From: a virus
Lineage: Duplodnaviria; Caudoviricetes
DNA: 64,000 bases
Direction: 5' to 3' (one strand)
Virus record (IMG/VR): IMGVR_UViG_3300014613_000025
Coordinates: 1-64,000 of that record
The notes under the pieces were generated by a model that was not told the origin of the DNA, did not search any database, and was given only the letters and a program-made list of their open reading frames with translations. This document shows, piece after piece, positions 20,372 to 50,234 of the stretch; position 1 is the stretch's first letter; every line of letters starts with the position of its first letter. Position numbers and translations under genes: made by a program.

Positions 20372-20389
20372 CTAAGTGGGAGGGAAGCG

Positions 20390-20755: not shown

Positions 20756-21130
20756 GAGCCATAGACGGTATCGCGGTAGCCATGCTCGGCGGTGCGATGG
20801 GTGCTATCGCATCAATGTCTGTCGAACGATGGGACGCACGTACCGTGTTGGCATCGGTAGCGTTAGCGGCCATGGCGGCATGGTGTGTGTCGCAGTGGAA
20901 AGGAGACGATGACGATGGCGAATAGCATGACCGTGATGGTGCCAAGGCGCATCGTGGTGCACAAGGACGGCGCGCATTGCGGGAGGTTGTGTTCTTGGTT
21001 GTGGGACGTATATGGCGCGTCAGAGTGCGATGTGTTCATTCTGCGCGGCGGCCCTTCGCGACCACTGGTTAGGGACAATGTCGGCCCGCTCCGATGCAAG
21101 CAATGCCTCGCCGCGACCAAGGCGAAGTGA
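20752..21130 (+). CDS. small membrane protein (20752-20925) and Cys-rich hypothetical (20909-21130)
   Basis: two hydrophobic helices in the first; coupled ORFs. Confidence 0.5.
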
Positions 21131-21840
21131 TGGCGCGTCACGACTCGCTAGGCGACCGAATGAAGCGCTACGAGTGCGCCACGCGCACAACGCTAACGCC
21201 TCGCACGCCGGTCATCGTCCGCGTTGACGGCAAGGCATTCCACGCTTACACGCGAGGGCTACCGGCATTCCACGAGCCGTTCGGTGATGCCATGGCTGTG
21301 GTCGCGTGGAAGCTATGCGAAGGCATCCAAGGCGCTGTGATGGCCTACGTGCAAAGTGACGAGGTCAGCGTTCTCGTGCACCCATACAAGCGCTATGCGA
21401 CAAGCGCATGGTTTGACGGGCAAGTCCAGAAGACCGTTAGCGTTGCGGCAAGCATTGCGTCGTCGACCATGACGGTGGAGTCCGCGCGTGTGTTCCAATA
21501 CATTAGACCCGCAGTCTTCGACGCGCGCGCGTTCGTATTGCCAGAGGGCGAGGTGGCTAACTACTTCGTCTGGCGACAGCAAGACGCTGTCCGCAACAGC
21601 GTTCAGATGCACGCGCGCTCGATGTTTTCTCACAAGCAATGCGACCACAAGAACTGCGACACGCTCAAGGCCATGTGTGCGGACGCGGGCAAGCCATGGG
21701 ATGACCTGTTGCCGCGCTGGCGCCAAGGTATCGTGTCGATGCGTGGCGGTGGCGACATCCCAGGGAGGTCAATGCCCGCCATGACGTTTGCCGACAACCG
21801 AGACGTCTTTGCGTTGTTGCTAGCGACGGAGGAGGAGTGA
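21130..21840 (+). CDS. tRNA(His) guanylyltransferase Thg1-like protein
   Basis: DSLGDRMKRYE, VIVRVDGKAFH, YVQSDEVSVL, FDARAF, YFVWRQQDAVRNS. Confidence 0.92.
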   Translation: MARHDSLGDRMKRYECATRTTLTPRTPVIVRVDGKAFHAYTRGLPAFHEPFGDAMAVVAWKLCEGIQGAVMAYVQSDEVSVLVHPYKRYATSAWFDGQVQKTVSVAASIASSTMTVESARVFQYIRPAVFDARAFVLPEGEVANYFVWRQQDAVRNSVQMHARSMFSHKQCDHKNCDTLKAMCADAGKPWDDLLPRWRQGIVSMRGGGDIPGRSMPAMTFADNRDVFALLLATEEE

Positions 21841-25392: not shown

Positions 25393-26153
25393 CACCCGCC
25401 GAAATCCTAACCTCGATAGGCCACGAACCGCGCAACCCGCGACCGTTCGGCCCAACGCGAGACGGCACCGCTACGGCCTGGACGTGCGACGGTGGAACCA
25501 TCTACCTCGACAGGTCACCAACTACGCCATACGTCGGGCGCGGGTCTGCCATGCTCGCCATCGACGACGCGAGACGTGCGCACCTAATCGAGCGCCAAGC
25601 GTGCGGTCGGCGAGTGCTTGACTTCGGGTCTGGCCTTGGTGGGTTCGTTGGCCGTGTGCGTGAGTGCGCAGCGTTTGCGATTGGCTACGAACCGTCCGCT
25701 CCCGATGCCATCACATGGTCATCGGTGGCCCACCAAGGCCCCTACGACATCGCAACAGCGTGGCATGTGGTAGAACACCTTGACGACCCTATTGAGGCCC
25801 TGACGCGCCTGTCAGGCATCATGGCTCCCGGTGCGCTACTGGTCGTCGAAGTGCCCCATGCGCGCGATTGGTTGCTCCACTCGTGCGGGGCGTTCCGTGC
25901 GTTCTCGCTGTGGTCGGAGCATCGTATTCTGCACACGCGAGAGACGTTGCGGTCGCTGCTACAATGTGGAGGCTTCGACGTCGAACGGATTGAGGCCGTG
26001 CAACGCTACCCGCTCGCCAATCACCTGCACTGGCTAACGCGTGGGATGCCAGGTGGGGTTGATGTCAACGAGAACCTTGACCGCGAGTATGCGGCAATGC
26101 TTGCGGCGCGAGATGAGACCGATACTCTGATCGCTTGGGCAAGGAAGGGGTGA
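25389..26153 (+). CDS. class I SAM-dependent methyltransferase
   Basis: VLDFGSGLG, WHVVEHLDDP, LVVEVP, QRYPLANHLHWL. Confidence 0.88.
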   Translation: MTPAEILTSIGHEPRNPRPFGPTRDGTATAWTCDGGTIYLDRSPTTPYVGRGSAMLAIDDARRAHLIERQACGRRVLDFGSGLGGFVGRVRECAAFAIGYEPSAPDAITWSSVAHQGPYDIATAWHVVEHLDDPIEALTRLSGIMAPGALLVVEVPHARDWLLHSCGAFRAFSLWSEHRILHTRETLRSLLQCGGFDVERIEAVQRYPLANHLHWLTRGMPGGVDVNENLDREYAAMLAARDETDTLIAWARKG

Positions 26154-26156
26154 CAA

Positions 26157-27200
26157 GTGGAACGTAAACTAGCAAGCATCCAACGCATCGAATCACTGAA
26201 GCCCATAGCCAAGGCCGACGCCATCGAGTGCGCTCGCGTACTTGGATGGGATGTCGTGGTCAAGAAGGGAGAATTCCAACCCGGAGACCTGTGCGTCTAC
26301 TTCGAGATTGACTCGATGATACCGCAGGACGTGCCAGAATTGGCATTCATGGCTAACGCTCGATGGCGAGTCAAGACCATCAAGTTGCGGGGCCAATTGT
26401 CGCAGGGCCTAGCGTTACCAGTGTCCACGTTCCCTTGGTTGCGGCTCACCGACAACCCTATCGACACCGACGTATCAAGCATGATTGGCAGCGGTGTCAC
26501 CAAGTGGGAACCGGACATTCACCCGTCGCTATCGGGAGAAGCGCGCGGGTCGTTCCCTGGGTTCCTTCGCAAGACCGACGAACCACGCATTCAGTCGTGC
26601 GCCGGATTGCTGCGCAGGCATGCGGACGCGTTGTGGTATGCGACCGAGAAACTGGACGGCACATCGTTTACGGCGTACTGGTATCGCGAAGACTTTGGCG
26701 TGTGCTCGCGCAACCTCAACCTGAAACCAGAGAGCGTCAATGGCAACGACACGCGCAATGTTCACTGGCGCGTTGCTAACCGGCTGGACCTGGCAGAGAC
26801 GTTGCCAAAGTTGTGTGTTGCATACGGACGCGACCTAGCTATCCAAGGCGAAGTCGTCGGCCCTCGCATCCAAGGAAACAAGTACGGGCTAGAGGAACCA
26901 ACGTTGTTCCTGTTTGGTGTGTATGACATCGAGCGCGCTGAATTCTTGGACTTGCCAGACCTTGTCAATATGTCTGCATCACTTGGTGTCAAGCATGTGC
27001 CAATGATTGCCAACCACATAGACTTGGGCGGCTCTACTGTTAATGACCTGGTTAGGAGTGCTGAGGGTAAGTCTAGGTTAGCCGACACACAGCGTGAGGG
27101 ACTGGTCTACCGGACCACGCAATACCGCGCAGACGACAGGGCGGGCCATGCGTCGTTCAAGGCCATCAACAACAAGTTCCTGCTAAAGCACGGCGAGTGA
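26157..27200 (+). CDS. RNA ligase, Rnl2/DRB0094 family
   Basis: RKLASIQRI N-domain, ATEKLDGTS (KxDG), IQGEV.G..IQGNKY, REGLVY, FKAINNKFL. Confidence 0.92.
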   Translation: MERKLASIQRIESLKPIAKADAIECARVLGWDVVVKKGEFQPGDLCVYFEIDSMIPQDVPELAFMANARWRVKTIKLRGQLSQGLALPVSTFPWLRLTDNPIDTDVSSMIGSGVTKWEPDIHPSLSGEARGSFPGFLRKTDEPRIQSCAGLLRRHADALWYATEKLDGTSFTAYWYREDFGVCSRNLNLKPESVNGNDTRNVHWRVANRLDLAETLPKLCVAYGRDLAIQGEVVGPRIQGNKYGLEEPTLFLFGVYDIERAEFLDLPDLVNMSASLGVKHVPMIANHIDLGGSTVNDLVRSAEGKSRLADTQREGLVYRTTQYRADDRAGHASFKAINNKFLLKHGE

Positions 27201-31720: not shown

Positions 31721-33748
31721 TCAGGCAACGATGCCACGCAACGAGGTGAACGCCTTGGCGAGCGAGACATCAACCGCTTGGCGTACCTCGTCCGGTTCGC
31801 GGTCTAGCGCATTCCAAACGGATTCGTTCGCACGGTTGAACCCTTCGAAGTCGCCGGTGCTAGCCAACGCGAGGTTGGCTGTTAGTCGCGCGATGTACCA
31901 CGCTACGGCATCGTTAGTACTGATAGGCATCGGTCAACCTGCTTTCTTTTCGGACTTCTCCGCTAGTTCCAAAGAGGCAAGCGCGAGGTATAGCAACTGT
32001 AACGCGTTGGACAGTTCAACCTTGCCGGTCTCAGTGATGGGCCGCATGCCCCGCAATGCCTCGATGGTGCGCACGGTGTTGTCGATTGCGTCGTCGATGT
32101 TCATTCGGCCCATCCTTTCACGGTCTCAAGCGCTTCATGGTGCCCTCAGCAGTTGCAATGCGTGTGCCAATCAGGCCGTGCTTCCCACCAGCCAAAGTTC
32201 AACCACGGTCTCAAGCGCTTCCGTCAATGCCTCGTGCCTCGTTGCCCCTGCGCCGATGATGTCGCCATCAAAGTCCAGTCCTGGGTCCACAACGAAGTAG
32301 CGCGGCAACCCTTCCTTGACGCCATCTGCATCCGTCTCTTGGACGTCGATGGCCGTAACGCCTAGCAGGTTGCAAAGCGCGCATCGGGTGTCGTCGATTG
32401 TGTGGGTGTTGTTCTTCATGGTGCTCTCAGTAGTTGCAAGTGCGATGCCACAGTTACCGGCCACGATAGGGCGAACTTGAGACGGTAGGCCGCTGCCCCC
32501 CGCCGTTGTCGTTGTCATGTGCGGCGGCATACCAGCCCTCGCGTTCGAGGTTCGACTTGGGGTTGTCCAAGTCTTGGATGGCTTCCCACATGACCCACAT
32601 GACCCAACCGTGGTGCCTGCGCTCGTTATCCTGATTCGTCATGGCGACTCCTGCCGGGGTCACCGCGACCCCGTTGTGCGGGTTGGGGTTATGCGTCGAG
32701 TGCGTACTCCGCTGCGCAAGCGCGGCACATGGTCTGGCCGTCGAGGTATCCGCCTTCGGCACGGACCGGCGACTGGCCCTCTTGCGGTTGCAGGATGCGA
32801 CCACAAGCGCAGCGGAACGCGCGGGCGGTTGCACCACGGTAGGCTGAGACCACCGCGTCAGCGTGGGCATCGGCATCGTAGCGGGCTTGGATTTCGGCGT
32901 GGGTCGCGTCTCGGTTGCTGTTGTTTTGGTTCTTCATGGTACTCTCAACCTTTGCAATGCGTGTGCCAGGTTCAGCCGCCCATCTGTTCCGCTGACTCGC
33001 GCGCTTCGTTCTCGGCAGCCGCAAAGCGGAGAGCTTCGGCGACACCCTTCAGCGCGCGCTTGCTGCCCCGGAGTGCTCGTCCACACATCCTGACCTGCGC
33101 GTCGTCGCCGAACCGGTTGGCCTCGTCGCGGAGTTTGCAGATTTGTTCGTAGGTGGGATTGCTGCTGTTGGTCTTGCTGGTCATGGTTCGTGTCCTCCTA
33201 CGGCCTCAGGCCGGGAACCGCGAAGGCTACCCGGCCGGGGTTGGGGTTGGAGAGAGCCTATACGGCTACCGTGTATCCGTTGCGCTTAGCGTGGCGGTTG
33301 ACGCCTTCGACCCATTCCTGAGCCGATTCTTCCGACACGAAGTCCATCGTGCTTTGGATGGTGATGCCTTCGAGGTTGCCAGAGATGAAGGTCTGGGAGA
33401 AGGTGAGGGTGTAGGGGTAGGGGTTGCTGCTGTTGTTTTGGTTTTTCATGGTACCAATTCCTAATGCAAACGCGGTGCCAATCAGGCCGGGGTGTGCGCG
33501 CGGACGAGAGCACGAACCGTGTTTTCGTAGGTTGCCGTGAAAACCCAGATGGCGGCATCGTAATCGCCAGCGAAGGTAGCCTTGGGGAATTCAACCTGAA
33601 ACGACTGCCAAAGGCCCATGCTCATATCGGTATCGGGTTCGTCTCCGCTAAAGACGCAGTAGTTTACGTGATCTTCCGCAGCGTCGACTGCGAACTTGAT
33701 GACGCGAGCGGTTGTCTTGCCGATGTCGTATTGGGTGATGTTCTTCAT
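31721..33748 (-). CDS. block 1 small ORFs (33482-33748, 33258-33449, 32972-33184, 32689-32937, 32454-32642, 32171-32419, 31934-32104, 31721-31930)
   Basis: starts fixed by a sigma54 motif 17 nt upstream or by an SD; no recognisable domains. Confidence 0.7.
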
Positions 33749-33779
33749 GGTGCCCCCAACCTATGCACTCCGCATGCCA
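32154..33779 (-). promoter_or_regulatory. block 1: five sigma54 (-24/-12) promoters
   Basis: 32154-32169 TGGCACACGCATTGCA; 32435-32450 TGGCATCGCACTTGCA; 32953-32968 TGGCACACGCATTGCA; 33465-33480 TGGCACCGCGTTTGCA; 33764-33779 TGGCATGCGGAGTGCA. Confidence 0.88.
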
Positions 33780-33846
33780 CGCGCAACCCGAAAGCGTAAA
33801 CGCCTAGAACGAGGCTGCGCCGCGCATATCATTGCGCCGCCAGACC

Positions 33847-34236
33847 ACGACTTTGAAGTCAGGGCCATGCAAACTTTGCCGATTCGTCCAAAAGTGTATG
33901 GTCACTATTTGGCCTTGTCCTTAGAAACAAGCGGTATTGCGTTTGGTTGCGCGGATAACAACCATGGCATCCATGTCATGGTGTGCGAAAACGTCGGGGT
34001 TTTGGGGGTAACTTCAGCAGTCCTAATGTTACCGCGAGACGCTACCGGGGCCAGCGCTGACCATGACATCCATGTCATAGCGGATGGCCCCCAAACGCGC
34101 GATGCTCGGTAAACGTAGGCTAACGTCCCCATGACATCCATGTCATAGCAAACCGGGTCGGCCTTGCCATGCTGCGCGAATACATGCGCAGCGATAGCGT
34201 TTTCGCGTTGCAGGGCGACTATGACATTGATGTCAT
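33847..34236. repeat. palindrome cluster A: 5 x A(T/C)G(A/G)C-N6-GTCA(T/G)
   Basis: copies start at 33847, 33964, 34063, 34131, 34221. Confidence 0.85.
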
Positions 34237-34481
34237 ACCCATGAACCATGCCTAGAAAACGTCTCTCCGGGTCAACCGCTGGCTTGGTGCTCCACCCTCG
34301 CCGCGCAGGGTGGCCATGATGGCGAGGACATGCGCTATCGTATCGCGAGCCGCTTGTGTCTCGCACACGTCGGGGTCGGACGCTATCGGGGTTATCGCGT
34401 TCGCAAGCTCAGCCGCTAGGTCCGCCGCGTTGAAGGGCCGCTCGCTAGCGATACGCCTAGCGGCGTGGATGCCAACCAGAC

Positions 34482-37400
34482 TCACGACGGCCCCGCAGTG
34501 CCGCGAGGTTGGCTGTAGCGGGATTCCGCTACCGCCCCGGCGCAAGCGTCGCGAGCGAACCGTTGGGCCACCTCTGACGGGTAGCTGCCCCCGTCATCGA
34601 GGTACACCCCCAACGCTATCTCGCATAGCTTCACCTGTTCAGTGTCGCCAGCCATGGCGGCTTCGTTGAGCAAGTCGCCAATCTGTCTGTCCGTCACGTA
34701 GTTTGATCCCATGTTATTCGTCCTTCTCGGTTGCTGAGATGGCCTTTGATAGCGCCAGCGCGGTGTGCAGGATGGCGACCTGGACAAGTTCTCTGCCTTC
34801 AGCGGTAGACGGTTCGACCTTGTGTAACGCGTCCAGTGCCTCGTCCAGCGCCGCTAGCGCGGTAGCGTGCGGGGTGTGGTCCGTGGTCATGACAGACGGT
34901 CCCATCCGCCGTTGCGCCGCTGGATTTCGACACGACCCCACGCGTCGTCAAAGTAGGGGCGCATGGCGCGAGCGAGCGCACGCTCCGCGCTTGTCACGGA
35001 CTTGGCGCGCGTCGCGATGACGTGGCCGACATCGTTACCAGTCTCGCCCACTACCAACCGGAAGGTTGAGCCGTAGGCTTCGTTGGGGTCGTTCTTGTTC
35101 GTGGTCATGTTCGTGGTCTCCTTGTCTCTCAGCGTTGCAAGCGTTACGCCAACTGCCAACCCTTGGGCAAGTCACACGGCAAGAATTCCGCGTTACCGGC
35201 AACGATAACCCCGACCGTTGGGCTCGCGACGCAACCGCACGCGCCGTCGCCAAAGGGCGACCCGTCCCACGGCACGACGCTAACGAGGTCAGCACTAGCG
35301 TTGTGCGCGCACACCTCCGCAACGTCTCGCGACTCGACCATCACACACCACTCGTTCGCGCTTGGTCCTTCCAGGTCGAACCAGATTGCATCATCGCAAG
35401 CGAGTCCGTTAGGGTCTCCGCCGCGAAGGGTGGCGATGTGGAGCGCGCTGGGCTTGGTTGTCGTTGTCATGTTCGTATCCTCCTACGCGCCTAAGCCTGC
35501 AAGGCGTGAGCCAAGCAGGCGAAGCGGTGTGGGTTGTGGTTAGAAATTGTAATCGTAGTACTTGTGCCTCGCTCCGATGGTAACGCGTTCCGTGCTGCGC
35601 GACACTCGCCAAGTGCCATCCTTGCGGAGCGTGGCCTTGGTGGTGGGGCCATCCAAGTCTCGTTCGTAGGAGTAGCGCTGGACGCCTTCAGTATGGCCGA
35701 AGAACCCACCAGGTGTGAACGTCAACGCGTCAGGTTCGCCGGAATTGAAGCCGTTGAGCAGGGTGGCCTTGTCGCGCTGCAACGTGATTGTCTTGCCGTT
35801 AGCCGACACGGCGATGACGGTTTGGGGAGTGGAGTCGCTGTAGTGGTGAATGGTGGCACCGTCACCAACCGCAGGCTTGTTCCGCGCCAACCGCATGGCC
35901 TTAGTGAACGAACCTCCGCAATCACAGACAATATTTCGGACGTCCAATACTGATGGGGTGCGCCCGTGGCGCTCCATGGTAGCGACGATGATTTCGCGCA
36001 GCGAAGCGGTAGCGATTGACGGGTATGTCCAGCGCAGTAGGTAGTCCTCGCACAGTTCGTCAACGCGCTCGTTCTGGGTGTCGGTCAAGGTTGTCGTTGT
36101 CATTGTCGTTGTCCTCCTACGCGTTACCTTTGCAATTCTAGTGCCACCGCTACGCCCTAGCCAAGAATCCTTTGCGGATTGCCAGGTACGCTTGCGACTG
36201 TTCGTTGCGGCCATGCTTCGCACACGTTGCAGCCATACGGCCAGCGGCATCGGCAGCCATCATGGCGGCATCAACCGAGCCGTTGTAGCGGGCGAGTGCA
36301 AAGACCTTGGCTGCGCGGGTTGGCGTCAAGGAGCCGCTCAGTATCTCTTTGATTTGGTCGATGTAGTTCATGACATCTTACCTTTGCAATCCTCGCGCCA
36401 ACTAGCGCCCGGTGTGCCTGAGATACCAGCGGACCGCGCCCGATTGAGTCTTGAACGTCTTGCTGACGGTAAACGTCATGGCGAGCCAAGTGCCGTCCGG
36501 TTGCGCGAAAACGCCGCTCGACAGGCTCTCGTTGTTGCCCATGTCAAGGGTCCGGTTCGTTACGGTCGGGGTTGTCGTTGTGGTCTTCATGATGCTTTCC
36601 TTCGGTGCAAACCTGATGCCAACCGCTACACTTCGACGATGACGCAATCGCCATTGTCGATGGCGCGCACGAAGCTGGCGGTAGCACTGTTGGCCCAATA
36701 CGAGCCGCAGTTTTCGAGGTAGCGCGAGAACACGCCAGCAAGTTGGGCAGACCTGAAAGTCTTGCGTGCGCGCTTGCCATTGATGGGGTCCGTGTAGCGG
36801 ACCGTGGTGCGTCCGGTACGGGTTGTCGTGGTCTCGATGTCGGCGTTGTATTGAGTCGTCATGATGCTTGTTCCTTATGCGAGCGGCGTGCCAATCACTC
36901 CCACGAACCGTTACGCGTTCGGGTCAAGCCAACGGAGCGGCGGATGCCGTTGCTCGCGCGAGCCCTGGCGTTACGTGCGTTCCGCGCCTTGTCCTGCGTT
37001 GCCGCTTCGGTGCGTGCGCAAGTGCGTCCAGACTCGGTCAACGAAAGGTAATCGGCGTCGAATACGTCGCCTTCTGCGAGGCCGTAGGCCACAAGTGCGC
37101 CGAGAGTCTCCCATCCGCATCGCGGGGTCTGGTTGAGGTAGAGGGCCAGGAGTGCATCGCGCTGGGTTCTGGTGAGCTTATTCATGGGAGATTCCTTATG
37201 CGATACTTGTGCCAAGTGGTCTAGCCGTTGTGGCGATGGCCGCTGCCGTTGCAACGGTAGCAGCAACCGCCGTTAATGTGGCGGTACTCAGGCAGCACAC
37301 CAGTCCCACCACAGCGCGGGCACTTGGCGGCTTCGCGCTCTGCGTTGGCGACTGCTGCCTGAACCTGGTAAAGCGCATCCAAGCGCGTTTCCGTGGCGGA

Positions 37401-37857
37401 ATCCATGGCCTTAGAGGTGGTCGCCATCAACAGGGCCAGCGGGTCGAAGGGTGCGGATGCATCGTAGGAGGCGTCAAGCGTCGGAGCGAAAGCAGCGCGA
37501 ATCTCGGCGATACGGTCGGCGATGGCATCGGAACCGGTTGCGATTGCCATTAGGTCAGCAACCACTTCGTCGTCGAGTGCGAGGAGGGCGGTGTTTTCGT
37601 TGGCGTTCATGATGATAATTCCTAATGCTAGATGCGTGCCAACTTGGCTAGCGAGCGCGGCGAGTCTTGCGAGTGGGCATCGTCAATTCGATATCGTCCA
37701 CCGTGAGGGTATTGACGGCCTTGGTGGTATTGAGCCAGCGGACGCAGCGGTCGCACATGCAACGCCCCGCATCTTCGGAATCCATAAAGCAGACGTTGGT
37801 TCCGTAGGTGGGGTGGTTGGTGTCGATGGTAACGTTGGCGTGTTCTGCGTTCGTCAT
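34482..37857 (-). CDS. block 2 small ORFs (37648-37857, 37221-37610, 36895-37185, 36626-36862, 36402-36590, 36150-36371, 35540-36103, 35144-35470, 34887-35108, 34714-34890, 34482-34712)
   Basis: nine have their own sigma54 motif; 37221-37610 ends in a CPRCGGTG...CYRCNGSG zinc ribbon. Confidence 0.7.
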
Positions 37858-37888
37858 GGTGCTTCGACACAATGCAACAGCGATGCCA
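35136..37888 (-). promoter_or_regulatory. block 2: nine sigma54 promoters
   Basis: 35136 TGGCGTAACGCTTGCA; 35498 TGGCTCACGCCTTGCA; 36131 TGGCACTAGAATTGCA; 36385 TGGCGCGAGGATTGCA; 36606 TGGCATCAGGTTTGCA; 36878 TGGCACGCCGCTCGCA; 37199 TGGCACAAGTATCGCA; 37626 TGGCACGCATCTAGCA; 37873 TGGCATCGCTGTTGCA (16-bp, lower coordinate given). Confidence 0.88.
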
Positions 37889-37978
37889 ACCAGACAACCT
37901 AGCCCAACCGCATATCATTACGCTGGCACTGCACGGAACCACCGATGTTCAGTGCTTTGGCGGGGCTGAAATGTATGG

Positions 37979-38443
37979 TGCCATACATGCAGGACTAAAC
38001 GTATGACTTCAATGTCATAGGGCCTTTAGCGCTTTGATTCTCGATGAAACGTGACGCCAAAGGGGAATGACCATACATGTAGGAGCAAACGTATGACTTG
38101 AAAGTCATAGGGCCAAACCGTCACGATGTGCCTAGAAAACAAGCGTGGCGCGCAAAGCGTGGCTGAATGACCATACACGTAGGAGCAAACGCATGGCGCC
38201 GTGGTCATACTGAACAAGGCCCAACCCCATCGAGCGGACCTTGGCGCCGTGGTCCGATGTCGAATGTTCGCGTTGGCCTTGTTCTGTAGCGTTTAGCGTT
38301 CGTTGGGCCACGAGTCCGCAACGTTTGCATACCACCACGACATCAAAGTCATAGGTGTTTCGGGTTCGCGGAATGCCTTGAATCGTAGCGGCAAGCGCGG
38401 CGTGACCATACATGCAGGAGCAAATGCATGACTTCAATGTCAT
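37979..38443. repeat. palindrome cluster B: 5 palindromes, four embedded in a ~45-bp direct repeat
   Basis: palindromes at 38003, 38093, 38193, 38337, 38428; unit GACCATACA(T/C)G(T/C)AGGAGCAAA(C/T)G(T/C)ATG(A/G)C-N6-GTCAT. Confidence 0.85.
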
Positions 38444-38617
38444 GGTGCTGTGTGGGATAGCGTGTGGGCTGGTGGCAACCTGTGGGAGCTATTCGTTGAC
38501 AGCGTGGAATAGTGCGGCGTTTTGGACGGTGGGCCATTGCTGGGCCAAGGATGGGCCTAGGACGCGTCGGGGTGGCGCCATGGCATCCAAGGCCAACCTG
38601 TGGCCGAAAGGGCCGTC

Positions 38618-41600
38618 CTAGGCCAACGTCGCGCGCCAATACCAGAGACCGCGCGCGCCGGTTGACTGGTAGAATACCTCGCCACGGTCCCCAACGTCTC
38701 CGTGGGTTGGAGCGCCGATACCGTGCAGGTAGTATCGTTCGCCATCATCCGCGCGGATTGTCCAGACGTAGGCGTTATAGTGGCAGGGTTTGCCTACGAT
38801 GGTAGCTGGTTTGCCTGTGGGCGAAATGTCAAGGTAAGCCTGGGCCAACCTAACCATGTTGGGCGCTCCGGGTATTGCGTGAGATACCAGATACTCTGCC
38901 AATTGCCTGGGTGACATGTCGTCGGGGTCGATTGGATTATTCTGTTCCACTATTCCTCCTTACAGGCTCAGATAAAGGCCGGTCTCATCGGTGAACAAGG
39001 TCTTCAACCCATCGGCGTAGATGTCGCTATGCGCGCTGCGCTTGGTTGCCTTGCCGCCACGGACCGTCCAGAATTCAACGGTGTAGGTGTCGCTAGGGTC
39101 CAAGCGAACCTTGACCATGTTTGACTTGTTACGGGCGCGCGCCTTGAACCGGAATGACGCGGTGTCCTCCGTCCCGAAGAACGATGACGCGCCAAGCATG
39201 GCGGAGAGTCGGCCCGTGCCGCCCATCTGGGCTAGGATTGTGTTTGCAACTTCGAGGTTGGTTTGCGTTGTCATGATGCTTTCCTGTCTTGCACGAGCCG
39301 TGCCATCACTTGCTGGCGAGGTAGGCAACCACTCGGCGCAGGTCGCGTGCGCCAAGGGATCCGAACCTGTCAGCGATCCATCCGCCGTCCGAGTCGCTAA
39401 CGCTAGCGCTCGTTCCTTTGCCGCAAGCGGAAGGGGTTACGGTAAGCACTGCGTCAGCCGGAACCTGGCGCACGCGAACCTTGGTCCCCTCGTAGCAACC
39501 CGCGTTGACGTAGGCGAGCGGTTGGCCCCAAAGGGCGGAGCAGAGGTCAGCGGCTGAGACGGTGATGGGGTTGGTGAAGTTCGTCATGGTGTTGGTTCTC
39601 TTTGCACGAGCCGTGCCACTAACGCAGCATGCCCCGCGTGGCATGCGCCAGCGGGGCGGTTGGCGTGGGTTCTGGCTACACGCTCTCGGCCACTTCCTGC
39701 AAACGCCGCATCCAATACGCCTTCTCTTCCCTGCCGCCAATCACCATCTCATTGGCTGCGCGGCAAGCCTCAACGTGCGAGTAAAACCCGCACTCGCCAG
39801 CGTTGGGCGCGTTGGCAACGAGGGAGGCGAATCGGGCCTTGCCAGCAAGGATGCAGCGTTCGGATTTGGCGATCTGGTTGGTGATGTAGGTTGCGGTATT
39901 CATGGTTCGTGTTCTCCTTGCCAGATAGCAATGCACTCCGCGTGCCAACCGCTACCAGTCCTCCAACCACTCGATGGTGGCCCCGTCTTCCAGCAAGGCC
40001 CACGGGCGGCCATCGTGGTAAACGAGCACGAACCAAAGATGCCACTCGCCGATTTTGTTACACACGTGAGGGCGGCCCATGATGTCGCTGGTTTTGATGT
40101 AGTCGGAGCAAGCGGCTTGGGTCGTGAAGGTCATGGTATTCATGGTGCTTGGTTCCTTTGCGAGACTCGTGCCAATGTCTACGCTATCCTGAGACCTGAC
40201 ACCAGCCTCTGGTTCGCTCGGCTGTAGGTGGCGGTGCTGACTCGGTCAAGCTCTGCCTTTGCCGCTGCATCGCCAGTCCACGCCTTCGTTGTCTTGTCGA
40301 ACGCGAATCCGCAGTCGCGGAGCAGTTTCGCTGCGGGGTAGGTGTTTCCGGTGATGGTGACTGTGTTCTCGTTGTTCATGATGACTCTTCCTTATGCACT
40401 CAGCGTGCCAATCATGCCCAGGTTTCGGTGCAGAGTACCTCGAACCCATTGACGCGACCCTTGCTGTCAAGCGATTCGCGCACCAGTCGGCGGACCTTGC
40501 GGCAAGTGTTGGTCTCCCAGAAGCAGCGGTATTCGACGGTCGGGGCCACGGTCGACTTGGTGTTGTTTTGGTTCTTCATGGTACAAGTTACCTTTGCACG
40601 CGTCGTGCCAGGTTCAACAAAACTAACCGTTCAGCATCCCCAGATCCAGATCTGGTAAGTGTTCAGATTGCCGTGTTCATGCAGATATTCGAGCGCATCG
40701 GCGAAGTCTTCGCGCGTCCAATCGAGCACGCGGATCGCTATCGATTCGTTCGAATAGCGCGGCTTGCGCGTTAGCATCTTTCCGTAGTCGTCGAGGTTCC
40801 ACTCACCTCCCCTGGCTCCTCGTTCCAACAACGCACGCAAGCCACGGGGGGTAAAAGCCCAGTAGTGATCGTACTGCTGAACGTATATTCTAGACATTGC
40901 AGCTATCTTCCTTGTCCAACCTAAGTTCCGTCGCTACGATCCTGCGAATGTAGGCTTCAATTTGGTCCCGCGATGCCATCCCAGGAATCCCTAGCCGCGT
41001 GGCTATCGTGCGGCGATCTTCGTCAGTTACCTCGACCAAAACTCGAATTTTCATGTCCCCCCCTACGCTCGGCAAAGGTGGACCCAGATCGACTTGATCG
41101 TCCACGTCCCATAGTCGGCATCGTCTACCATGTCCAAGTCGAACATGCGGTCGACCACGGCGTCCGAAACCCGGCGCTCCCACACGGGCCGAGCGGAGTC
41201 GAAGATCGACCACATTTTCTCGCCAAGGCCCGGCCTCATCAGAGTGACGGTCCCAGTACACTCCGCGAGGGCCTTTCGCAATCCGGCGGGTAGGCGAGCG
41301 GGGTTGTTGTCTGTGCCCGCGGTGCGCTTGCTCGTGCTCTTCATGGTTCGTGTCCTCCTGCTTGTTATCATTGCATTCAGCGTGCCAATCACTCCCCGCA
41401 GAATCCGTCGTCGCATAGACAAGCCGTTGCGTTGCCTTTCGCCCAATCCTTGGCCGCCGTCAAGGCTCGGAACCACTTGCTCTTACCATTGTCCAGGCAC
41501 ACTTCGTATTCGGTCCCATGGATTTGGCTTACAAGCACCGTGATTGTTCCCTCGCTATTCCCATCGATGGCGACGTCAATCCGTGCGCTTCCGTCCCAGT

Positions 41601-41897
41601 TGGTGACCTTGTCTCCGAACGTGACCTTGTTTGTTTGAGTCTTCATGGTACAAGTTACCTTTGCAGGACGTGTGCCAACCTGACGGCTCACTCGAATTCG
41701 GCGAACAGGTCAGGTTCGCCATCGGCGTCCACCGGGCGACCCTGGGCGACCCAATCGGCCTTGAATGCAGCGTGGCAAGCGGCAACGCGAGCGGATTCCG
41801 CTGCATCCGCGCGTCGCTCCTTAGCGGTGCGGTAGTAGTTCGCGGGGTTGCTGATGTAGGCGTGGACGTCTGCGAAGCTGGTTTGGTTGTTGTTCAT
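38618..41897 (-). CDS. block 3 small ORFs (41688-41897, 41389-41646, 41063-41344, 40890-41054, 40631-40897, 40412-40579, 40179-40379, 39952-40143, 39676-39903, 39306-39587, 38960-39274, 38618-38950)
   Basis: nine have their own sigma54 motif; 40412-40579 (55 aa) is not in the ORF track; 38960-39274 (ANTILAQMGG...VRLDPSDTYTVEF) resembles a widespread phage/ICE hypothetical. Confidence 0.7.
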
Positions 41898-41928
41898 GGT
41901 GCAATCCTACCTAGCACGCACTGTGCCA
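39290..41928 (-). promoter_or_regulatory. block 3: nine sigma54 promoters
   Basis: 39290 and 39603 TGGCACGGCTCGTGCA; 39932 TGGCACGCGGAGTGCA; 40159 TGGCACGAGTCTCGCA; 40395 TGGCACGCTGAGTGCA; 40595 TGGCACGACGCGTGCA; 41372 TGGCACGCTGAATGCA; 41662 TGGCACACGTCCTGCA; 41913 TGGCACAGTGCGTGCT. Confidence 0.88.
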
Positions 41929-41997
41929 ATACCCCAACGACACCGCGAAGCGCTACGTCTACCGACGAAAGCGCGTTCCACTGAGTGGATTCATACC

Positions 41998-42331
41998 ACG
42001 ACTTTCAAGTCGTGCCTGTGCAAAGTTTGCCGGTTTGGCCAAAAACGTATGGTCACTGTTCCGCGATACGCTATGAAACAAGGGTTAGCGTAACTTGCGC
42101 ACACCTGAACACCGCACGACTTTCAAGTCGTGGTGTTGCTGGCATGCCTTGTTTTGTGGCGTTTGGCAAAGGGTACAAGTAATGCTGGTACCCTTGGGGC
42201 CACGGCCCGCAACGGTGTGTGCGCTTGGTAGGACATGTGCGCTTGCCATGGCGTCAATGTCATACTGAACAAGCCAAACCGCACGACTTGCCGTAACCTG
42301 TAGGCTTTAGCCACCACGACTTCGATGTCAT
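41998..42331. repeat. palindrome cluster C: 4 copies
   Basis: 41998 and 42116 ACGAC-TTTCAA-GTCGT; 42248 ATGGC-GTCAAT-GTCAT; 42316 ACGAC-TTCGAT-GTCAT. Confidence 0.8.
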
Positions 42332-42441
42332 GCTGAACAAGCCCCAATGGTGCACGGTTGTTGTGTTTGGCTTTAGTTGTGCGGATATCGTGGTAGGCGG
42401 CGGGTATGGCGTGGATGTCGTGGTGGGTGTGCGTTCAGTGT

Positions 42442-43524
42442 CTAACCGACGATGCGCAACCCGGCATCGGCGACCATGGCCCGCACGATGTCAAGCGGAA
42501 GGTTGACCACCGCGACGCACCAGCCGTATCCGTAGCGCGTACGGCCCTCGTATTCATCGAAGCCAATCCGGCGCAGGGCGCGGATAGCAACGCCACGAGA
42601 CGTCGCCTCAACCTCATATTCCCCAGCGGTATCCTGGTGGCTCAACTTGGTCGCAAGCGCACGGACTGCCTTGCGTGTCGAGTCGTCTCCGGTCAAGGTC
42701 GCGAGGCAATCGCCACCCATGGGACCGTGCGAGGTCAGGAAGACGTTGCCAATCCTCGCGCCGCAGCACACGCATGAGATGTTGGCAAAGGTTCCGCCAA
42801 GCGCTTCCAGGGCCGCTGGCGAGCCAGCAACCGCGAATCCTTCGAGGGCCACGCCGTCAAACTTGTCGCGGATCTTCTGGGTAAGTCGCATCGTCGTCTC
42901 CCTCTTCTCGTTGTCCTTGGTCGCAACCGTTGGAGTCGAACCAACCTTATACCACAATCACCCTGGTGGGCGCTCGCCGGAGCCTTTTCGTTGTGGGCTG
43001 CGATGCTTGGTGAGTATGCGAACGGCGTGCCAAGCTATGCGGCACGCTGGCTTTCCAACAGCGCTAGCCGCCAATACGCGGCCTCAAGCCGCTCGCCCAC
43101 ACGGAGGCCGTGCCAGGTGTGGGTTACGCCAGCGAACCGCCTATTGTTTAGGTCGCGAATCTCGACCTTGAGGTCAAGGATGCGACGTTGGATAAGCTCA
43201 GGAGTCATGCGGGTTGTGTTCGTCATGGCTCTACTCCCATGCACTCAGCGTGCCAAGCGCTCAGCGCGTTACCCTGAACCCCTGCGAGGTTGCGTTCAGG
43301 TAGACGTTCTCGGCGGCGATGCGGCAGTTGTTGCGGTGCGTTTCGGCATCGAGCAGAGCTTGCGGCCACTGCTCAGGTACACCGGCGCAGATCGTAGCGT
43401 ACCGCAGCGCATTGTATGCGTGAATGGCCTTATCGTAGGCTTTCGTCGCCTTGTTCATGGCAACCTTGGCAGCGCGCGCGGTCGGGAAGGTCTTGGTCTC
43501 GGCGGGGTTGGCTTGGTTCGTCAT
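42442..43524 (-). CDS. block 4 small ORFs (43261-43524, 43035-43226, 42442-42891)
   Basis: two have own sigma54 motif; the third has a GGGAG SD downstream of the tRNA-like RNA and CVCC...GGDC cysteines. Confidence 0.7.
42918..43002 (-). ncRNA. CCA-ended tRNA-like RNA without D or anticodon arms
   Basis: acceptor CGCAGCC/GGTTGCG + A + CCA; T arm GTTGG-TTCGACT-CCAAC; 5' end 16 nt below the -12 element of promoter 43017. Confidence 0.75.
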
Positions 43525-45165: not shown

Positions 45166-45767
45166 ATGAGTGAACCCAAACCAGGTGAACGGCCCGACGT
45201 TGAAGGCGTCTTTGAACGACTCCGCCAACGGTTGGATGACATTGTGCCGATGCCACGCAAGACAGTCGAGGTGCTTGCCACGCTGCTAGGTGGCCTTGAC
45301 GCTAGGCGAGAGGTCAGATGGCGCAAGCGTGAACATCGAGTCAAGAACCGCAACGAACGGCAACGGCGCGCACTGTCGCGCAGGAAGGCGAGACGATAGC
45401 AATGCAACAGAGACCAGCAAAGGAGCACGATACCATGGCATGCACGAAGCGTATCGCGAAGGCTGCGAAGCACTTGGACAAGGCCGCCGACCTGTTGGAC
45501 GATGCCATTGACGACTACTACAACGAGGAGGTTGGTCAACGTGTTCCCACGCGCGAGGACGTTATCGCGCATGCGGCAAAGGCCATCCTAGACAATGTGT
45601 CAGCGCGCGGTGCCGTGGTCCTGTTCGGCCAACGTGACAACTGTGTGGCATTGACTGACACTGGGCCACTTCGCGCATCGCCTGCGGCCCAGATAGCTTC
45701 GCTGCTAACACTGGCCGTGCGCGAGGCAATCACGCAAGCGTATCAGGAGGCCAACGGCGATGACTGA
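45166..45767 (+). CDS. two hypothetical proteins (45166-45399, 45435-45767)
   Basis: first starts 24 nt after CCTAAAC; second has AAGGAG RBS and overlaps the cytidylyltransferase start. Confidence 0.55.
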
Positions 45768-46881
45768 CAACGTCGTAGCCATCATCCCAGCGCGAGGCGG
45801 CAGTAAGGGACTGCCACGCAAGAACCTGGCAATGGTTGGCGGGTTGCCGTTGCTCGCGCGCGCTATCGAGACCTGCCGCGACGCGGGTATCGCTGACATC
45901 GTGGTCACGACAGACGATGACGAAATTGCAGCGGTCGCACAATGTCATGGCGCGCAGGTTGTTCGGCGACCGTTGGACTTGGCTAGCGACACCGCCACAA
46001 GCGAGGATGCCATCTGGCACGCGCTAGACGTGTGTGGCATCGATAGCGGGACGTGTGCGTTCGTGCAATGCACGACTCCGCTGTTGACGTCTGACGAGGT
46101 GGCGCACTGCGTGGCGTTGGCAGAACTAGGCCGCAGCGCGTTTACGGTCTATCCGCACCACAACGTTTTCTGGTACGATGATGAACCGCTTAGCACACTG
46201 CCACGCAAGCCAAGACAGCAATGCAAGCCGCTGTGGAAAGAGACTGGCGGATGCTATGCGTTCCCGGTCGAGGCATTCATGCGCAAGCGCTCGCGCTTCC
46301 CGACTGAGACCGTTATGGTCCGCTCAGAGTATGGCATTGACATCGATGATGAAAACGACCTGGCGGCGGCCAATGCGATTGTGCGTCGCGGTTTGACAAG
46401 CCCTGGCTTGCGTAGCCGATTGTCGCGCGTTCAGTTGCTCGTCCTAGACTTCGACGGTGTGCTAACAGACAACCGCGTGTTGACCGACAGCGATGGGCGC
46501 GAGGTGGTATCCTGTTCCAAGGCTGACAGTTCGGGCATCATACTGCTCCAACGCGCTGGCGTTCGGGTTGTGTGTTTGACTCACGAGCACGACAGGTCGG
46601 CACTGTTACGGTGTCGCAAGTTGGGCATCGAGTGTGTGCAAACGTCGGGGCTAAAACCGTTAGCCCTAGAGACAATGCTACAAGGCACACCGCTAGAGCA
46701 AGTCTGCTACGTTGGCAATGACGAACCCGACGTTGCGTGTATGGCAATGGTTGGCGTGAGCATGGCCCCGCATGATGCGGAACCGTGCGCGCTTGATGCC
46801 GCTCAGGTTGTGCTAAAGCGCAACGGTGGAGACGGCGCCGTACGCGAGGCGTGTGAGATGATTCTGGAGGCGCAATGCTAA
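45760..46881 (+). CDS. neuA: acylneuraminate cytidylyltransferase fused to KdsC-like HAD phosphatase
   Basis: AIIPARGGSKGLPRKNL, VQCTTPL, IDIDDENDL; then LVLDFDGVLTD and YVGNDEPD...GGDGAVRE. Confidence 0.92.
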   Translation: MTDNVVAIIPARGGSKGLPRKNLAMVGGLPLLARAIETCRDAGIADIVVTTDDDEIAAVAQCHGAQVVRRPLDLASDTATSEDAIWHALDVCGIDSGTCAFVQCTTPLLTSDEVAHCVALAELGRSAFTVYPHHNVFWYDDEPLSTLPRKPRQQCKPLWKETGGCYAFPVEAFMRKRSRFPTETVMVRSEYGIDIDDENDLAAANAIVRRGLTSPGLRSRLSRVQLLVLDFDGVLTDNRVLTDSDGREVVSCSKADSSGIILLQRAGVRVVCLTHEHDRSALLRCRKLGIECVQTSGLKPLALETMLQGTPLEQVCYVGNDEPDVACMAMVGVSMAPHDAEPCALDAAQVVLKRNGGDGAVREACEMILEAQC

Positions 46882-47252
46882 CCGTCTATGCAATCCAAAA
46901 CGCCGATGGGCAATGGCTTCGCAGCAAGGGATACGGCGGCTGCGGCCCGTCGTGGGTTGACGATATCAGCCTTGCGCGCCTATACCAGCGCATCGGAACG
47001 GCGCGCGGTCGCGTTGGCTACTACGTTGGAGCGTATCCAGACTTGCCGCCTCCCAAGTTGTTTGCGTTTACGTGCAACGAGGGTGTGGAACTTGACGAGT
47101 CCGCTCGCGTGGCAAAGGTAGCTAAGCACAAGTCGACACAGAAGAAACGAAAAGAATTGGCAGACGCTAAGCGGAAACTGAAGGACGCGAACGACAGGTT
47201 TGCTAAGGCCAAGAAAGACTTGGAGGCATTGAAGTGCACACCGTCAGAGTAG
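46875..47252 (+). CDS. hypothetical protein
   Basis: overlaps both neuA and neuB; YAIQNADGQWLRSKG start, basic helical tail. Confidence 0.6.
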   Translation: MLTVYAIQNADGQWLRSKGYGGCGPSWVDDISLARLYQRIGTARGRVGYYVGAYPDLPPPKLFAFTCNEGVELDESARVAKVAKHKSTQKKRKELADAKRKLKDANDRFAKAKKDLEALKCTPSE

Positions 47253-48103
47253 GCAATCGCGAGGTTGGTGAGGGCAAACCGTGCTTCATTATAGCGGAGA
47301 TCGGGATCAACCACGATGGCGATGTTGACGTTGCCAAGCGGCTGATTGATGTGGCGGTGTCGGCAGGGTGTGACGCTGTCAAGTTTCAGAAGCGCACACC
47401 TGACTTGCACGTTGCACCAGACAAGCGAGACGTCTTGCGTGATACCCCGTGGGGCGAGATGCGCACGATTGACTACCGCGAGCGCATCGAATTCGGCCAC
47501 GCCGAATACGACGACATCAACGAGTATTGCTTGCAGCGTGGTATCCTGTGGTTCGCGTCGCCGTGGGACGTGCCGAGTGTTGACTTCCTCGAACAGTACA
47601 ACCCGCCATGCTACAAGATTGCGAGCGCTGGCATGGTCAACAAGGCCCTACGCTGCGCCGTCTGGGCCGCAAGACGGCCCGTCATCATGTCGACGGGCAT
47701 GGCGACACTGGCAGACATTGACGAGGCGTACGATGACCTGGCAAGCGACAGGTTGACGCTATTGCATTGCACGAGCAACTACCCAACGACGGACGATGAG
47801 ATTGACCTACCTGTAATCGAGACACTGCGGCAGCGCTACCGCGTACCGGTTGGTTACAGCGGCCACGAGGTTGGACTGTTGCCGTCTGTATTGTCCGTTG
47901 CGGCCTGGCGGGCTTGCATCGTTGAAAGGCATGTGACATTAGATCGAGGCCGAAAAGGCAGCGACCACGGCGCAAGCATTGAGCCGCATGGGTTGCACTT
48001 GCTCGTGCGCGACATCAGGCGAGCGGAGCGGTTGCGCGAGGGTGGTTGGAACAAGCGGGTTCATGCGTCGGAGGCGGCGCAGATCAAGAGGTTGAGAGGA
48101 TGA
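47234..48103 (+). CDS. neuB: N-acetylneuraminate (nonulosonate) synthase family, short form lacking SAF domain
   Basis: FIIAEIGINHDGD, AVKFQKR, YKIASA, IMSTGM, LLHCTSNYP, GYSGHE, IVERHVTLDR..GSDH. Confidence 0.93.
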   Translation: MHTVRVGNREVGEGKPCFIIAEIGINHDGDVDVAKRLIDVAVSAGCDAVKFQKRTPDLHVAPDKRDVLRDTPWGEMRTIDYRERIEFGHAEYDDINEYCLQRGILWFASPWDVPSVDFLEQYNPPCYKIASAGMVNKALRCAVWAARRPVIMSTGMATLADIDEAYDDLASDRLTLLHCTSNYPTTDDEIDLPVIETLRQRYRVPVGYSGHEVGLLPSVLSVAAWRACIVERHVTLDRGRKGSDHGASIEPHGLHLLVRDIRRAERLREGGWNKRVHASEAAQIKRLRG

Positions 48104-48300
48104 CACCCAAGCAAGCAACAATGGTTCTGGACGTCATGCGGACGCATGAGTGGCATCGCGGGGAAGAGGGGACGTGGTGCCAATCGTGCAATGGCGGATA
48201 TTCGATCTATAGCCATAGTAAGCACCGCACTCCTAGTCACAAGCGTGGATGCAAGTGGGCGCGCGCTGTTAGGTTGTTGGAGGGATTGTTGGCGTCCTAA
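48100..48300 (+). CDS. small Cys/His hypothetical protein
   Basis: coupled to neuB. Confidence 0.5.
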   Translation: MTPKQATMVLDVMRTHEWHRGEEGTWCQSCNGGYSIYSHSKHRTPSHKRGCKWARAVRLLEGLLAS

Positions 48301-48350
48301 ACCCGTTTGACGTATTAGCATAGGACAACAGAACAACAGGACAGGAGAAC

Positions 48351-50234
48351 ATGCGACAAGTATCAGTGCTGGGTGGAGGTGAGATTGCACCGGAGATGAT
48401 TGCGGTATTGCAACCCGCGACGGTGTCAGTCATGGAAGCGGCAATGCCCGCTAACGTGGGGCCACGCTCGCGCGCTATCCTTGAGTCAGTGGAGCCCATT
48501 GGGCACTTTGGCATCACTGGCAATGGTGCGTTTACGCTGGTCCACAGCGGTCAAACGTGGGACTCGTTCGACGCTGGCAAGGAAGAGTCGCTACGCAAGG
48601 AGATTGAACTAGGCCACCCGCTAGTCATCTTCGGATGCGGCGCAGGCAACCTGCTATTTCGCGTTCGCACTATCTGTCAATCTGTGCGCGACGGGGTTCC
48701 GCCAATCATCATCTACGAGCCAAACGCTGGCGTGCTCAAGGCGTTCCTGTCCGTGCGCTTCCCGCTCCAAGGTGTGAGTGTCTGTTGCGATATCGACGAC
48801 TTCCGCCACATGCTGCAAACGCTGTTGCAGGGTCAGTCATCGTTGACCATCTTTCATACTGGCGACTACGTGATGCCCGCTGAGATTGCGGAGCAACGAG
48901 GGCCAATCGCCGTCGCTAACCAAGAGGCTTACGCGCTGTTCTCCGATGTCGTGCGGCGCATCGTTGACGCTGAGCAAGTGACCATGAACACCATCGCAGC
49001 GCGAATGGGCGAGTGGATTCGCAACGTGGCAGAGAACCTCGACGCATGCGCGGGACAAGTGCCAGCCATGTCGTTGGCGGGTGCGTTCGTTGGTGCGCCC
49101 GCGTTCATCGTCGGGGCAGGGCCATCGCTGGACCGTAACGGGCCTTTGCTGGCGTCGTGTTACGAGAAGGGGCTGGTCATCACCGTGGACGTTGCGGCGC
49201 GAGCGTTCGTCAAGCACAACGCGCAACCGCACCTATTCCTGGCGGTCGAAGGGCGCGACTTGTCAGAACACCTCGAAGGCGTCGAGTGGATTGACACTGT
49301 CCCGCGAGCGTTCTCGCTAGAGGCTAGTCCTGCGGTGTTGAAGATCGGCAATGGCCCACTGTTGCCTTGGGCGGATAGCAACTTTTCGTTCAACGCCGTC
49401 AACCACCAACTGCTAGGTTCCGAGGGATTGCCGATTGGTGGCAGTGTCACAACCGCTGCGTTCTTGTTTGCCGAAGCGTTCGGATGCAACCCCATTATCC
49501 TTGTGGGCCAAGACCTGGCAAACACTGGCGGCAAGCGTGCGGCGGATGGCGTGCTAGCTGACAAGTTGCATGCACTCGAAGAGCATGGCGAGGTTGCCGC
49601 ATGGGGCGACCCTGCAACGAAGATTCCCGATACGCCGCAGTGGTTGCACGCGCGTGTTTGGTTCGAGCAACGCGCTGCTAGGTTGGCAAAGGACAAGCCG
49701 CATATCAGGCTCATCAACTGCACCGAAGGTGGGTCACACGTTGACGGGTTCGAGGACTTGCCGCTTGCGGATGTCATCGAGGAAATGCAAAGCGTTAGCA
49801 TCGACATCAAGGGTGCGTTGAATGACGTTCAACCCGTGTGGAAAGACGGTATCGACTGGTTCCGCGATAAGCAAGTAGAGAAACTGCAACCCATTGCAGA
49901 CGCGGCATTCGCGACGGTTGCCGCCTGCGAGGCAGTAGCGTCAATGATTCGCACAGACAAGGATGCGGACGTGTCTGAACTGATGGCGACCCGGACCGAA
50001 AATGAGAACGCGTTTAGGGTGTTGGCCGCGCCCCACGAGATGTTCACCGGCTGGACCCAAGCACTCATCATCAACCTACAGGACATTCGCAAACAGTCGA
50101 CTAAGCACGAGATGGTTGGCGAGGATGCCGCCGCGTTCTTTGACACTGAGGCAGGCATCTTCCGCGCGATGGGTGATGCTGCGGTTGAACTTCGCAACGT
50201 GCTCACACGTCAAACGGAGAAGGCCAATGCGTGA
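48351..50234 (+). CDS. Maf/DUF115 (MptE-like) family putative nonulosonate glycosyltransferase
   Basis: AFIVGAGPSLDRN, ITVDVA, GGSVTTAA, IILVGQDLA, INCTEGG; C-terminal helical region. Confidence 0.82.
   Translation: MRQVSVLGGGEIAPEMIAVLQPATVSVMEAAMPANVGPRSRAILESVEPIGHFGITGNGAFTLVHSGQTWDSFDAGKEESLRKEIELGHPLVIFGCGAGNLLFRVRTICQSVRDGVPPIIIYEPNAGVLKAFLSVRFPLQGVSVCCDIDDFRHMLQTLLQGQSSLTIFHTGDYVMPAEIAEQRGPIAVANQEAYALFSDVVRRIVDAEQVTMNTIAARMGEWIRNVAENLDACAGQVPAMSLAGAFVGAPAFIVGAGPSLDRNGPLLASCYEKGLVITVDVAARAFVKHNAQPHLFLAVEGRDLSEHLEGVEWIDTVPRAFSLEASPAVLKIGNGPLLPWADSNFSFNAVNHQLLGSEGLPIGGSVTTAAFLFAEAFGCNPIILVGQDLANTGGKRAADGVLADKLHALEEHGEVAAWGDPATKIPDTPQWLHARVWFEQRAARLAKDKPHIRLINCTEGGSHVDGFEDLPLADVIEEMQSVSIDIKGALNDVQPVWKDGIDWFRDKQVEKLQPIADAAFATVAACEAVASMIRTDKDADVSELMATRTENENAFRVLAAPHEMFTGWTQALIINLQDIRKQSTKHEMVGEDAAAFFDTEAGIFRAMGDAAVELRNVLTRQTEKANA

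Follow-up and report, generated by a model that had tools for sequence, protein, structure and literature searches.

An 85-nt stretch on the minus strand of a phage contig has the acceptor stem, T arm and CCA end of a tRNA and stands directly below a promoter motif, at the place where a small gene would be expected to begin. The locus raises the question of what such an RNA is and what it could do there. An initial annotation, made from the DNA letters, had proposed a new tRNA mimic with three possible functions: a decoy for tRNA-targeting defenses, an aminoacylatable mimic, or an RNase P/RNase Z processing signal for the downstream gene. The mimic itself, with its acceptor/T-arm half and CCA at the ORF-start position of a cassette, was borne out. 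Among the three functions, the processing signal is the best fit to the local anatomy, and the decoy and aminoacylation functions are speculation.

The source was a linear IMG/VR virus contig of 73,113 bp, estimated to be 78% complete. The window, i.e. the whole stretch of DNA that was analyzed, was its first 64 kb, and coordinates refer to the window unless another locus is named (Table 1). A terminase search returned no relative above 42% identity and found no close phage relatives, and blastn of 2 kb against phages gave no match. Genes for a CMP-sugar cytidylyltransferase, a NeuB-type synthase and an MptE/Maf-like protein are clustered on the plus strand at 45760-50234, which looks like a phage nonulosonic-acid pathway.

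Table 1. Coordinates of the element, its flanks and related features
Feature	Position	Strand	Basis or remark
tRNA-like element, 85 nt	42918-43002	minus	sequence read directly; ARAGORN/Rfam-negative
Acceptor 5' strand	42996-43002	minus	
Element body, 50 nt	42946-42995	minus	
T arm	42929-42945	minus	
Acceptor 3' strand	42922-42928	minus	
Discriminator A	42921	minus	
Encoded CCA	42918-42920	minus	
Sigma54-type promoter motif TGGCACGCCGTTCGCA (-24 GG, -12 GC)	43017-43032	minus	motif match
Predicted start site G	43006	minus	usual sigma54 -12 geometry
Predicted 4-nt 5' leader GCAU, U at -1	43003-43006	minus	sequence; start site inferred
SD spacer, 26 nt; GGGAG at 42898-42902, 6 nt before ATG	42892-42917	minus	sequence
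Downstream ORF P0001, 149 aa, conserved Cys and GPMGGDCLATLTGDDSTR motif	42442-42891	minus	homolog alignment
Upstream ORF P0002, 63 aa, own promoter at 43255	43035-43226	minus	
Look-alike, GCTGTCC/GGGCGGC, T arm GGTGG-TTCGATT-CCACC, A73 then CTA (no CCA)	107-189	minus	ARAGORN-negative
ARAGORN/Rfam 'tRNA-Thr' (CGT), 42.8 bits	20295-20371	plus	ARAGORN end 20372
Thg1-like gene	21094-21840		downstream of cREC-domain gene
Methyltransferase gene	25347-26153		few kb beyond 20295-20371 tRNA
RNA ligase gene	26157-27200		few kb beyond 20295-20371 tRNA
Look-alikes of relative G001	L009 1555-1608, 2760-2836, 2966-3055	minus	top-half scan

Sequence and predicted fold of the element

The element was read on the minus strand from 43002 to 42918, and its acceptor stem, T arm, discriminator A and CCA were found as the initial annotation had described them. 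The acceptor stem (CGCAGCC/GGTTGCG) is 7 bp long and includes a single G-U pair. The T arm (GTTGG-TTCGACT-CCAAC) consists of a 5-bp stem and a 7-nt loop, and its G53, T54, T55, C56, R57, A58 and C61 are all canonical. The element has in this way the 7-bp acceptor stem and the 5-bp T stem with a T54-Psi55-C56-R57-A58 loop of a canonical tRNA. Neither a D arm nor an anticodon arm with its 7-nt loop was found in the 50-nt body, which excludes a canonical tRNA. ARAGORN, run on the window, called no tRNA or tmRNA at the element, and its sole tRNA lay at 20295-20372; Rfam searches at gathering thresholds and at E ≤ 10, with RF00005 and the tmRNA clan included, returned nothing at the element. The absence of standard hits had been anticipated, as had the lack of fit to tRNA, tmRNA or Y-RNA models, and both were what ARAGORN and Rfam returned.

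For the body, a CACAA/TTGTG stem enclosing the hairpins GCTC-CGGC-GAGC and CCC-ACCA-GGG had been proposed. The sequences for this fold are present (-26.5 kcal/mol; a close variant, -28.2 kcal/mol), but the minimum free energy structure of the element (-28.4 kcal/mol) has a different body, a long imperfect hairpin. Ensemble pair probabilities of the isolated element were ≥0.88 for the acceptor and T arm and only ~0.4 for the CACAA/TTGTG stem. On these modeled probabilities the top half is well defined, and the CACAA/TTGTG stem is one candidate fold for the body. The fold energy of the single sequence was not unusual relative to shuffles (z = -0.79). With 160 nt of downstream sequence included, the acceptor pairing vanished, as it did for a bona fide tRNA-Ala control from another phage. 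The best explanation of the element, advanced tentatively, is that it is a real non-decoding tRNA look-alike in which a tRNA top half is joined to a foreign 50-nt body.

Promoter and position within the cassette array

The motif above the element has the GG/GC spacing of TGGCAC-N5-TTGC, a predicted sigma54/RpoN promoter. Motifs of this type were counted 18 times against an expectation of 2.7, and 17 of the 18 lie on the minus strand within 32-43 kb; the claim that the element has its own sigma54-type promoter was thus upheld, and by a member of an over-represented motif family. Neither a sigma54 gene nor an enhancer-binding ATPase gene (PF04552, PF00158) was found in the 78%-complete contig. 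The promoter-plus-spacer pattern was also searched in IMG/VR contigs, where it gave 3 single matches, all unrelated.

The minus strand carries an array of TGGCAC-N5-TTGC motifs at 32154-43255, one per small ORF. In most cassettes 13-15 nt separate the motif from the ATG, so that a leader of 3-5 nt is predicted from the usual sigma54 geometry; at least 3 others have a leader of ~30 nt with AGGAGG. Counting from the C of the -12 GC, C1 of the tRNA-like element is 16 nt downstream, as had been noted before. Promoter and spacer aligned with those of the neighboring cassette at 36893 at ~84% identity, and the ATG of that cassette fell on G2 of the element. By this alignment the element begins where an ORF would begin in a cassette, in agreement with the earlier statement that its 5' end occupies the ATG position of its neighbors.

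No sigma70-like promoter and no intrinsic terminator were predicted in 42300-43400. Because no terminator was predicted there, the element is probably co-transcribed with P0001. Read-through from the cassette at 43255 can also reach the element.

Flanking reading frames

The 143-nt gap between P0002 and P0001 is fully filled by the promoter, the element and the SD spacer. P0002 is an orphan, with no homologs among 5.8 billion proteins; the same number of proteins yielded 11 homologs of P0001. Upstream of its ATG, the P0001 frame contains no stop codon as far as a TTG within the element. Eight of the 11 homologs were aligned; their starts coincide with the ATG at 42891, and their extra length is C-terminal. 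Since the homolog N-termini align with this ATG, the element is judged, from the protein alignment, to be non-coding.

Cys40, Cys43, Cys62 and the GPMGGDCLATLTGDDSTR motif are invariant in the P0001 family. Comparison of P0001 with Pfam, PHROG and PDB folds gave no match, and Atlas gave nothing informative. Upstream of the P0001 homologs no tRNA-like element was found; tight operons or a small Cys-rich ORF were found instead, and in the closest relatives it is the small Cys-rich ORF that precedes in place of the element (L054 55-270, L055 492-707).

Expected frequency in shuffled genomes

To estimate chance occurrence, the 73-kb genome was shuffled 400 times with a first-order Markov model. 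A T-arm-like hairpin was defined as 5 pairs with a TTCRANN loop, and an acceptor as 7/7 pairing with a heptamer 25-120 nt upstream. Shuffled genomes contained 2.1 T-arm-like hairpins each; hairpins with a 7-bp acceptor occurred 0.22 times per genome, and those that also had CCA after the discriminator occurred ~0.005 times per 73-kb genome.

Searches for homologs of the element

Exact and patterned searches were run against several collections. An exact 29-mer of the element had 0 matches in IMG/VR contigs, and the T arm plus acceptor 22-mer had 0 matches in 185,579 species genomes. A gapped acceptor plus T-loop pattern gave 0 matches in IMG/VR contigs and 1 in JGI metagenome contigs, which lacks a T stem and is a chance match. 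A looser pattern, T-loop-N4-GGTTGCGACCA (the T loop, 4 free bases and the 3' strand of the acceptor plus ACCA), had 77 matches in the 185,579 species genomes, none of them a tRNA, which rules out a copy of a cellular tRNA end. By these sequence searches the element is a single orphan candidate.

The 85 nt were also compared by blastn with 50,697 phage records. Only short, non-significant matches were returned (25-30 nt, E 0.7-3), the best of them being T arms of phage initiator-type tRNA-Met(CAT) genes that start with CGC. The 17-nt T arm of the tRNA-Met(CAT) of the Felixounavirus Escherichia phage EC6 is identical to that of the element, and the T arm of the second best-match phage, the T5-like Pectobacterium phage DU_PP_V, is near-identical. 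Ancestry from tRNA-Met(CAT) is on this sequence similarity a lead only. A literature search on phage sigma54/leaderless arrays and phage tRNA-like decoys found no paper on such an element in the collection searched.

Related elements in this phage and its relatives

Scanning for intact tRNA top halves yielded two further elements in the same phage. The one at 189-107 has a long imperfect hairpin in place of the anticodon arm and a weak Rfam tRNA-Sec score of 16.8 bits, far below threshold; it is followed by an SD (GGAGG) and then by an ATG at 89, 17 nt downstream. The other is the tRNA called at 20295-20371, whose anticodon arm has 7 bp in the stem and 9 nt in the loop, the latter with the palindrome GGGCCC; this tRNA lacks a CCA and ends 18 nt before the SD-led ATG of a cREC-domain gene (20390-20755). 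The gaps from the three look-alikes to an SD-led ATG are 26 nt for the element under study and 17-18 nt for the others. The cREC, Thg1-like, methyltransferase and RNA ligase genes look, from their sequences, like an RNA-repair module; phage gene sets of this kind were described by Iyer et al. (PMC7824862).

The same scan was applied to G001 (IMGVR_UViG_3300003323_000307, 71.7 kb), a distant relative by terminase. Three ARAGORN-negative look-alikes lie there within 1.5 kb (~52.1-53.6 kb), on the strand opposite the terminase, and two of the three are followed by ORFs. One is a 54-nt mini form consisting almost entirely of acceptor, T arm and a small hairpin; it reaches 31.1 bits with the Rfam tRNA model and 25.7 bits with that of mascRNA, whose threshold is 42.5. 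G001 also has a normal tRNA-Ala (L058 3032-3106). Another terminase relative, G004, has an ARAGORN tRNA with a four-base anticodon (ccta; L061 11855-11926, minus strand), and more odd tRNA-like hairpins lie near it, with T loops at G004 10943 and 11128.

Phages of this loose group appear, from the sequences compared, to keep tRNA top halves and to let the decoding half vary freely. Intact top halves next to varying decoding halves argue against random decay of tRNA genes.

Comparison with known tRNA-like RNAs

For the tRNA-like t-elements of plant mitochondria, a role as mRNA-end signals for RNase P/Z has been documented (Forner et al. 2007, PMC1920247). Like the phage element, they adjoin mRNA ends, depart from the canonical tRNA structure but keep the T arm, and are open to a reading as cis-signals for RNase P/RNase Z; a t-element, once cut out, can persist as a small RNA. 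They differ in that t-elements are organellar, derive from recognizable tRNAs and have no promoter of their own 4 nt upstream, whereas the phage element belongs to a phage of bacteria, encodes its CCA, has its D and anticodon arms wholly replaced and is cleaved by prediction. mascRNA and menRNA (RF01684) are small tRNA-like RNAs that, like the element, have an acceptor/T-arm helix and no decoding anticodon loop. mascRNA is cut from a longer transcript by tRNA-processing enzymes, as is proposed for the element; it is however eukaryotic, lies at the 3' end of a lncRNA and receives its CCA after cleavage, while the element encodes its own and has no Rfam mascRNA match, only the 54-nt mini form of G001 reaching a score. 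On paper, by analogy, the element would be t-element-like or mascRNA-like.

The tRNA-like domain of tmRNA, in reduced TLD-only forms as well, shares the acceptor, the T arm, A73-CCA and the missing anticodon arm, and in both RNAs the D and anticodon arms are replaced by a helix that leaves the core. The G3:U70 alanine identity pair of tmRNA is absent, position 3:70 being C-G in the element, which also has no tag reading frame. tmRNA is excluded by this C-G pair, by the model searches and by the lack of an smpB gene in the phage. Y RNAs/YrlA are tRNA mimics with a T-arm-like elbow that are linked to RNA repair loci (PMC4201824), and both traits recall the phage element. Y RNAs end in a Ro60-binding stem and the element ends in acceptor-CCA; these ends, the lack of a TROVE gene (PF05731) and the lack of an Rfam match exclude a Y RNA. 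The tRNA-Met(CAT) genes of EC6 and DU_PP_V share with the element the T arm, the 5' CGC start and an encoded CCA, and that of DU_PP_V also shares the discriminator A. They fold into complete cloverleaves, have CAT as the anticodon and are mismatched at 1x72, whereas the element has a 1-72 C-G pair and no D arm, anticodon arm or anticodon, and the similarity is statistically insignificant.

Alternative explanations

The element could instead be a trans-acting tRNA-shaped small RNA whose functional product is the excised 85 nt, a reading that is possible but somewhat unlikely. Such an RNA might serve as a decoy or sponge for host factors that target the acceptor end or the elbow of tRNAs (e.g., CCA-end-modifying toxins or acceptor-stem nucleases), as a chargeable minihelix carrying an amino acid, or as a partner of the phage's RNA-repair enzymes. 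Its own promoter and ORF position look as if the RNA were the gene of the cassette, the encoded CCA and A73 give it a mature-type 3' end, and the phage has tRNA-conflict functions (cREC domain, Thg1-like protein, RNA ligase; PMC7824862). On the other side, no terminator is predicted, so that the RNA would never be a stand-alone transcript, and no Ro60/TROVE (PF05731), SmpB or CCA-adding gene was found as a partner in the 78%-complete contig. Bacterial tRNA-Pro typically has a C1-G72 pair and A73 at its acceptor end, which the end of the element resembles, yet the aminoacylation identity set is incomplete, with no G3:U70 and no anticodon. The anticodon loop is the usual target of anticodon nucleases, and the element is without one. 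A more specific version is improbable: an early, free and stable CCA-ended minihelix would act in trans, either sponging acceptor-end defense enzymes or feeding a phage enzyme after tRNA-Pro-like charging, and would form a tRNA-conflict toolkit with the two other look-alikes and the cREC, Thg1-like and RNA ligase genes.

Felixounavirus and T5-like phages carry initiator-type tRNA-Met, and a neutral relic of a phage tRNA gene, for instance one of this kind, its middle replaced or scrambled, would account for the tRNA-Met(CAT) matches, including the 17 nt identical in EC6, and would fit a terminase that is distantly related to that of Felixounavirus. This origin is unlikely: the matches cover so little at such E values, the 50-nt body is unrecognizable whereas no defect is seen in any of the 12 helix pairs, the conserved T-loop bases or the CCA, random decay should have damaged the top half too, and the same asymmetry between top and bottom recurs in three elements of one phage. 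Very unlikely is a chance resemblance, or an attP-like tRNA 3' fragment or tRNA-derived integration core. About 10% of shuffled T-arm-like hairpins also find a 7-bp 'acceptor' within 25-120 nt, and over ~250,000 scanned windows an event of 0.005 per genome is expected somewhere; the expected count for this one genome is nevertheless 0.005, and it is lower still for an intergenic position that exactly fills the gap from promoter to SD. Against an attP origin, an integrase search of the contig found none, and in the species genomes the 22-mer is missing, the 77 looser matches include no tRNA, and a host tRNA end that would match did not turn up.

Proposed RNase P processing of the element

The reading tentatively preferred, by analogy with t-elements, is a cis-acting, non-decoding module that RNase P of the host would cut. 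RNase P, EF-Tu, TrmA/TruB and the enzymes that trim the 3' end or repair the CCA all recognize a tRNA by its top half. U at -1, the preferred base, and a 3' RCCA are known determinants of bacterial RNase P, and an encoded CCA is an anti-determinant for RNase Z. The features of an RNase P-recognizable module at an mRNA boundary are present at the locus: a 12-bp coaxial helix, U-1, RCCA, an SD-led ATG at a distance of 26 nt and no predicted terminator.

The sigma54-type promoter would transcribe the element as the 5' leader of the P0001 mRNA, and read-through from the upstream cassette would also yield RNA that contains it. Host tRNA-maturation enzymes would recognize the top half, and RNase P would cut at U-1/C1, the encoded RCCA helping it to dock. 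The cut would separate the upstream transcript and leave a base-paired 5'-monophosphate end. Two outcomes are conceivable at the 3' side. Trimming back to the CCA would release the P0001 mRNA with its SD and, as a separate piece that may also accumulate, an 85-nt tRNA-shaped RNA; alternatively, the element would remain attached and shield the 5' end of the P0001 mRNA. Transcription, RNase P cleavage and any effect on the mRNA are all inferred here.

RNase P processing is favored because the top half is flawless and no remnant of a D or anticodon arm accompanies it, because such a feature set is rare by chance, and because the 143-nt gap is fully used, has no terminator and leads to a P0001 ATG confirmed by homologs. 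It is favored also by the two further look-alikes that precede SD-led ATGs in the same phage, by the three in G001, by the match of U-1 and the 3' RCCA to RNase P determinants, and by the documented role of t-elements at mRNA ends. Several observations speak against it. The element has no homolog in the collections searched, its fold energy is not significant alone and its body structure is ambiguous. The promoter 4 nt upstream would make a 5' end without cleavage, and at least 3 other cassettes simply have an SD leader after the promoter. The encoded CCA blocks RNase Z as a route of 3' release, and close P0001 homologs elsewhere manage without such an element.

Implications

The setting is unusual: a sigma54-type promoter and an array of near-leaderless cassettes in a phage with tRNA-repair enzymes. 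If the element is processed as proposed, tRNA finders and Rfam would be overlooking a class of phage RNA genes, and phages of bacteria would use stripped-down tRNA shapes as mRNA punctuation or 5' caps, a principle so far documented mainly in organelles.
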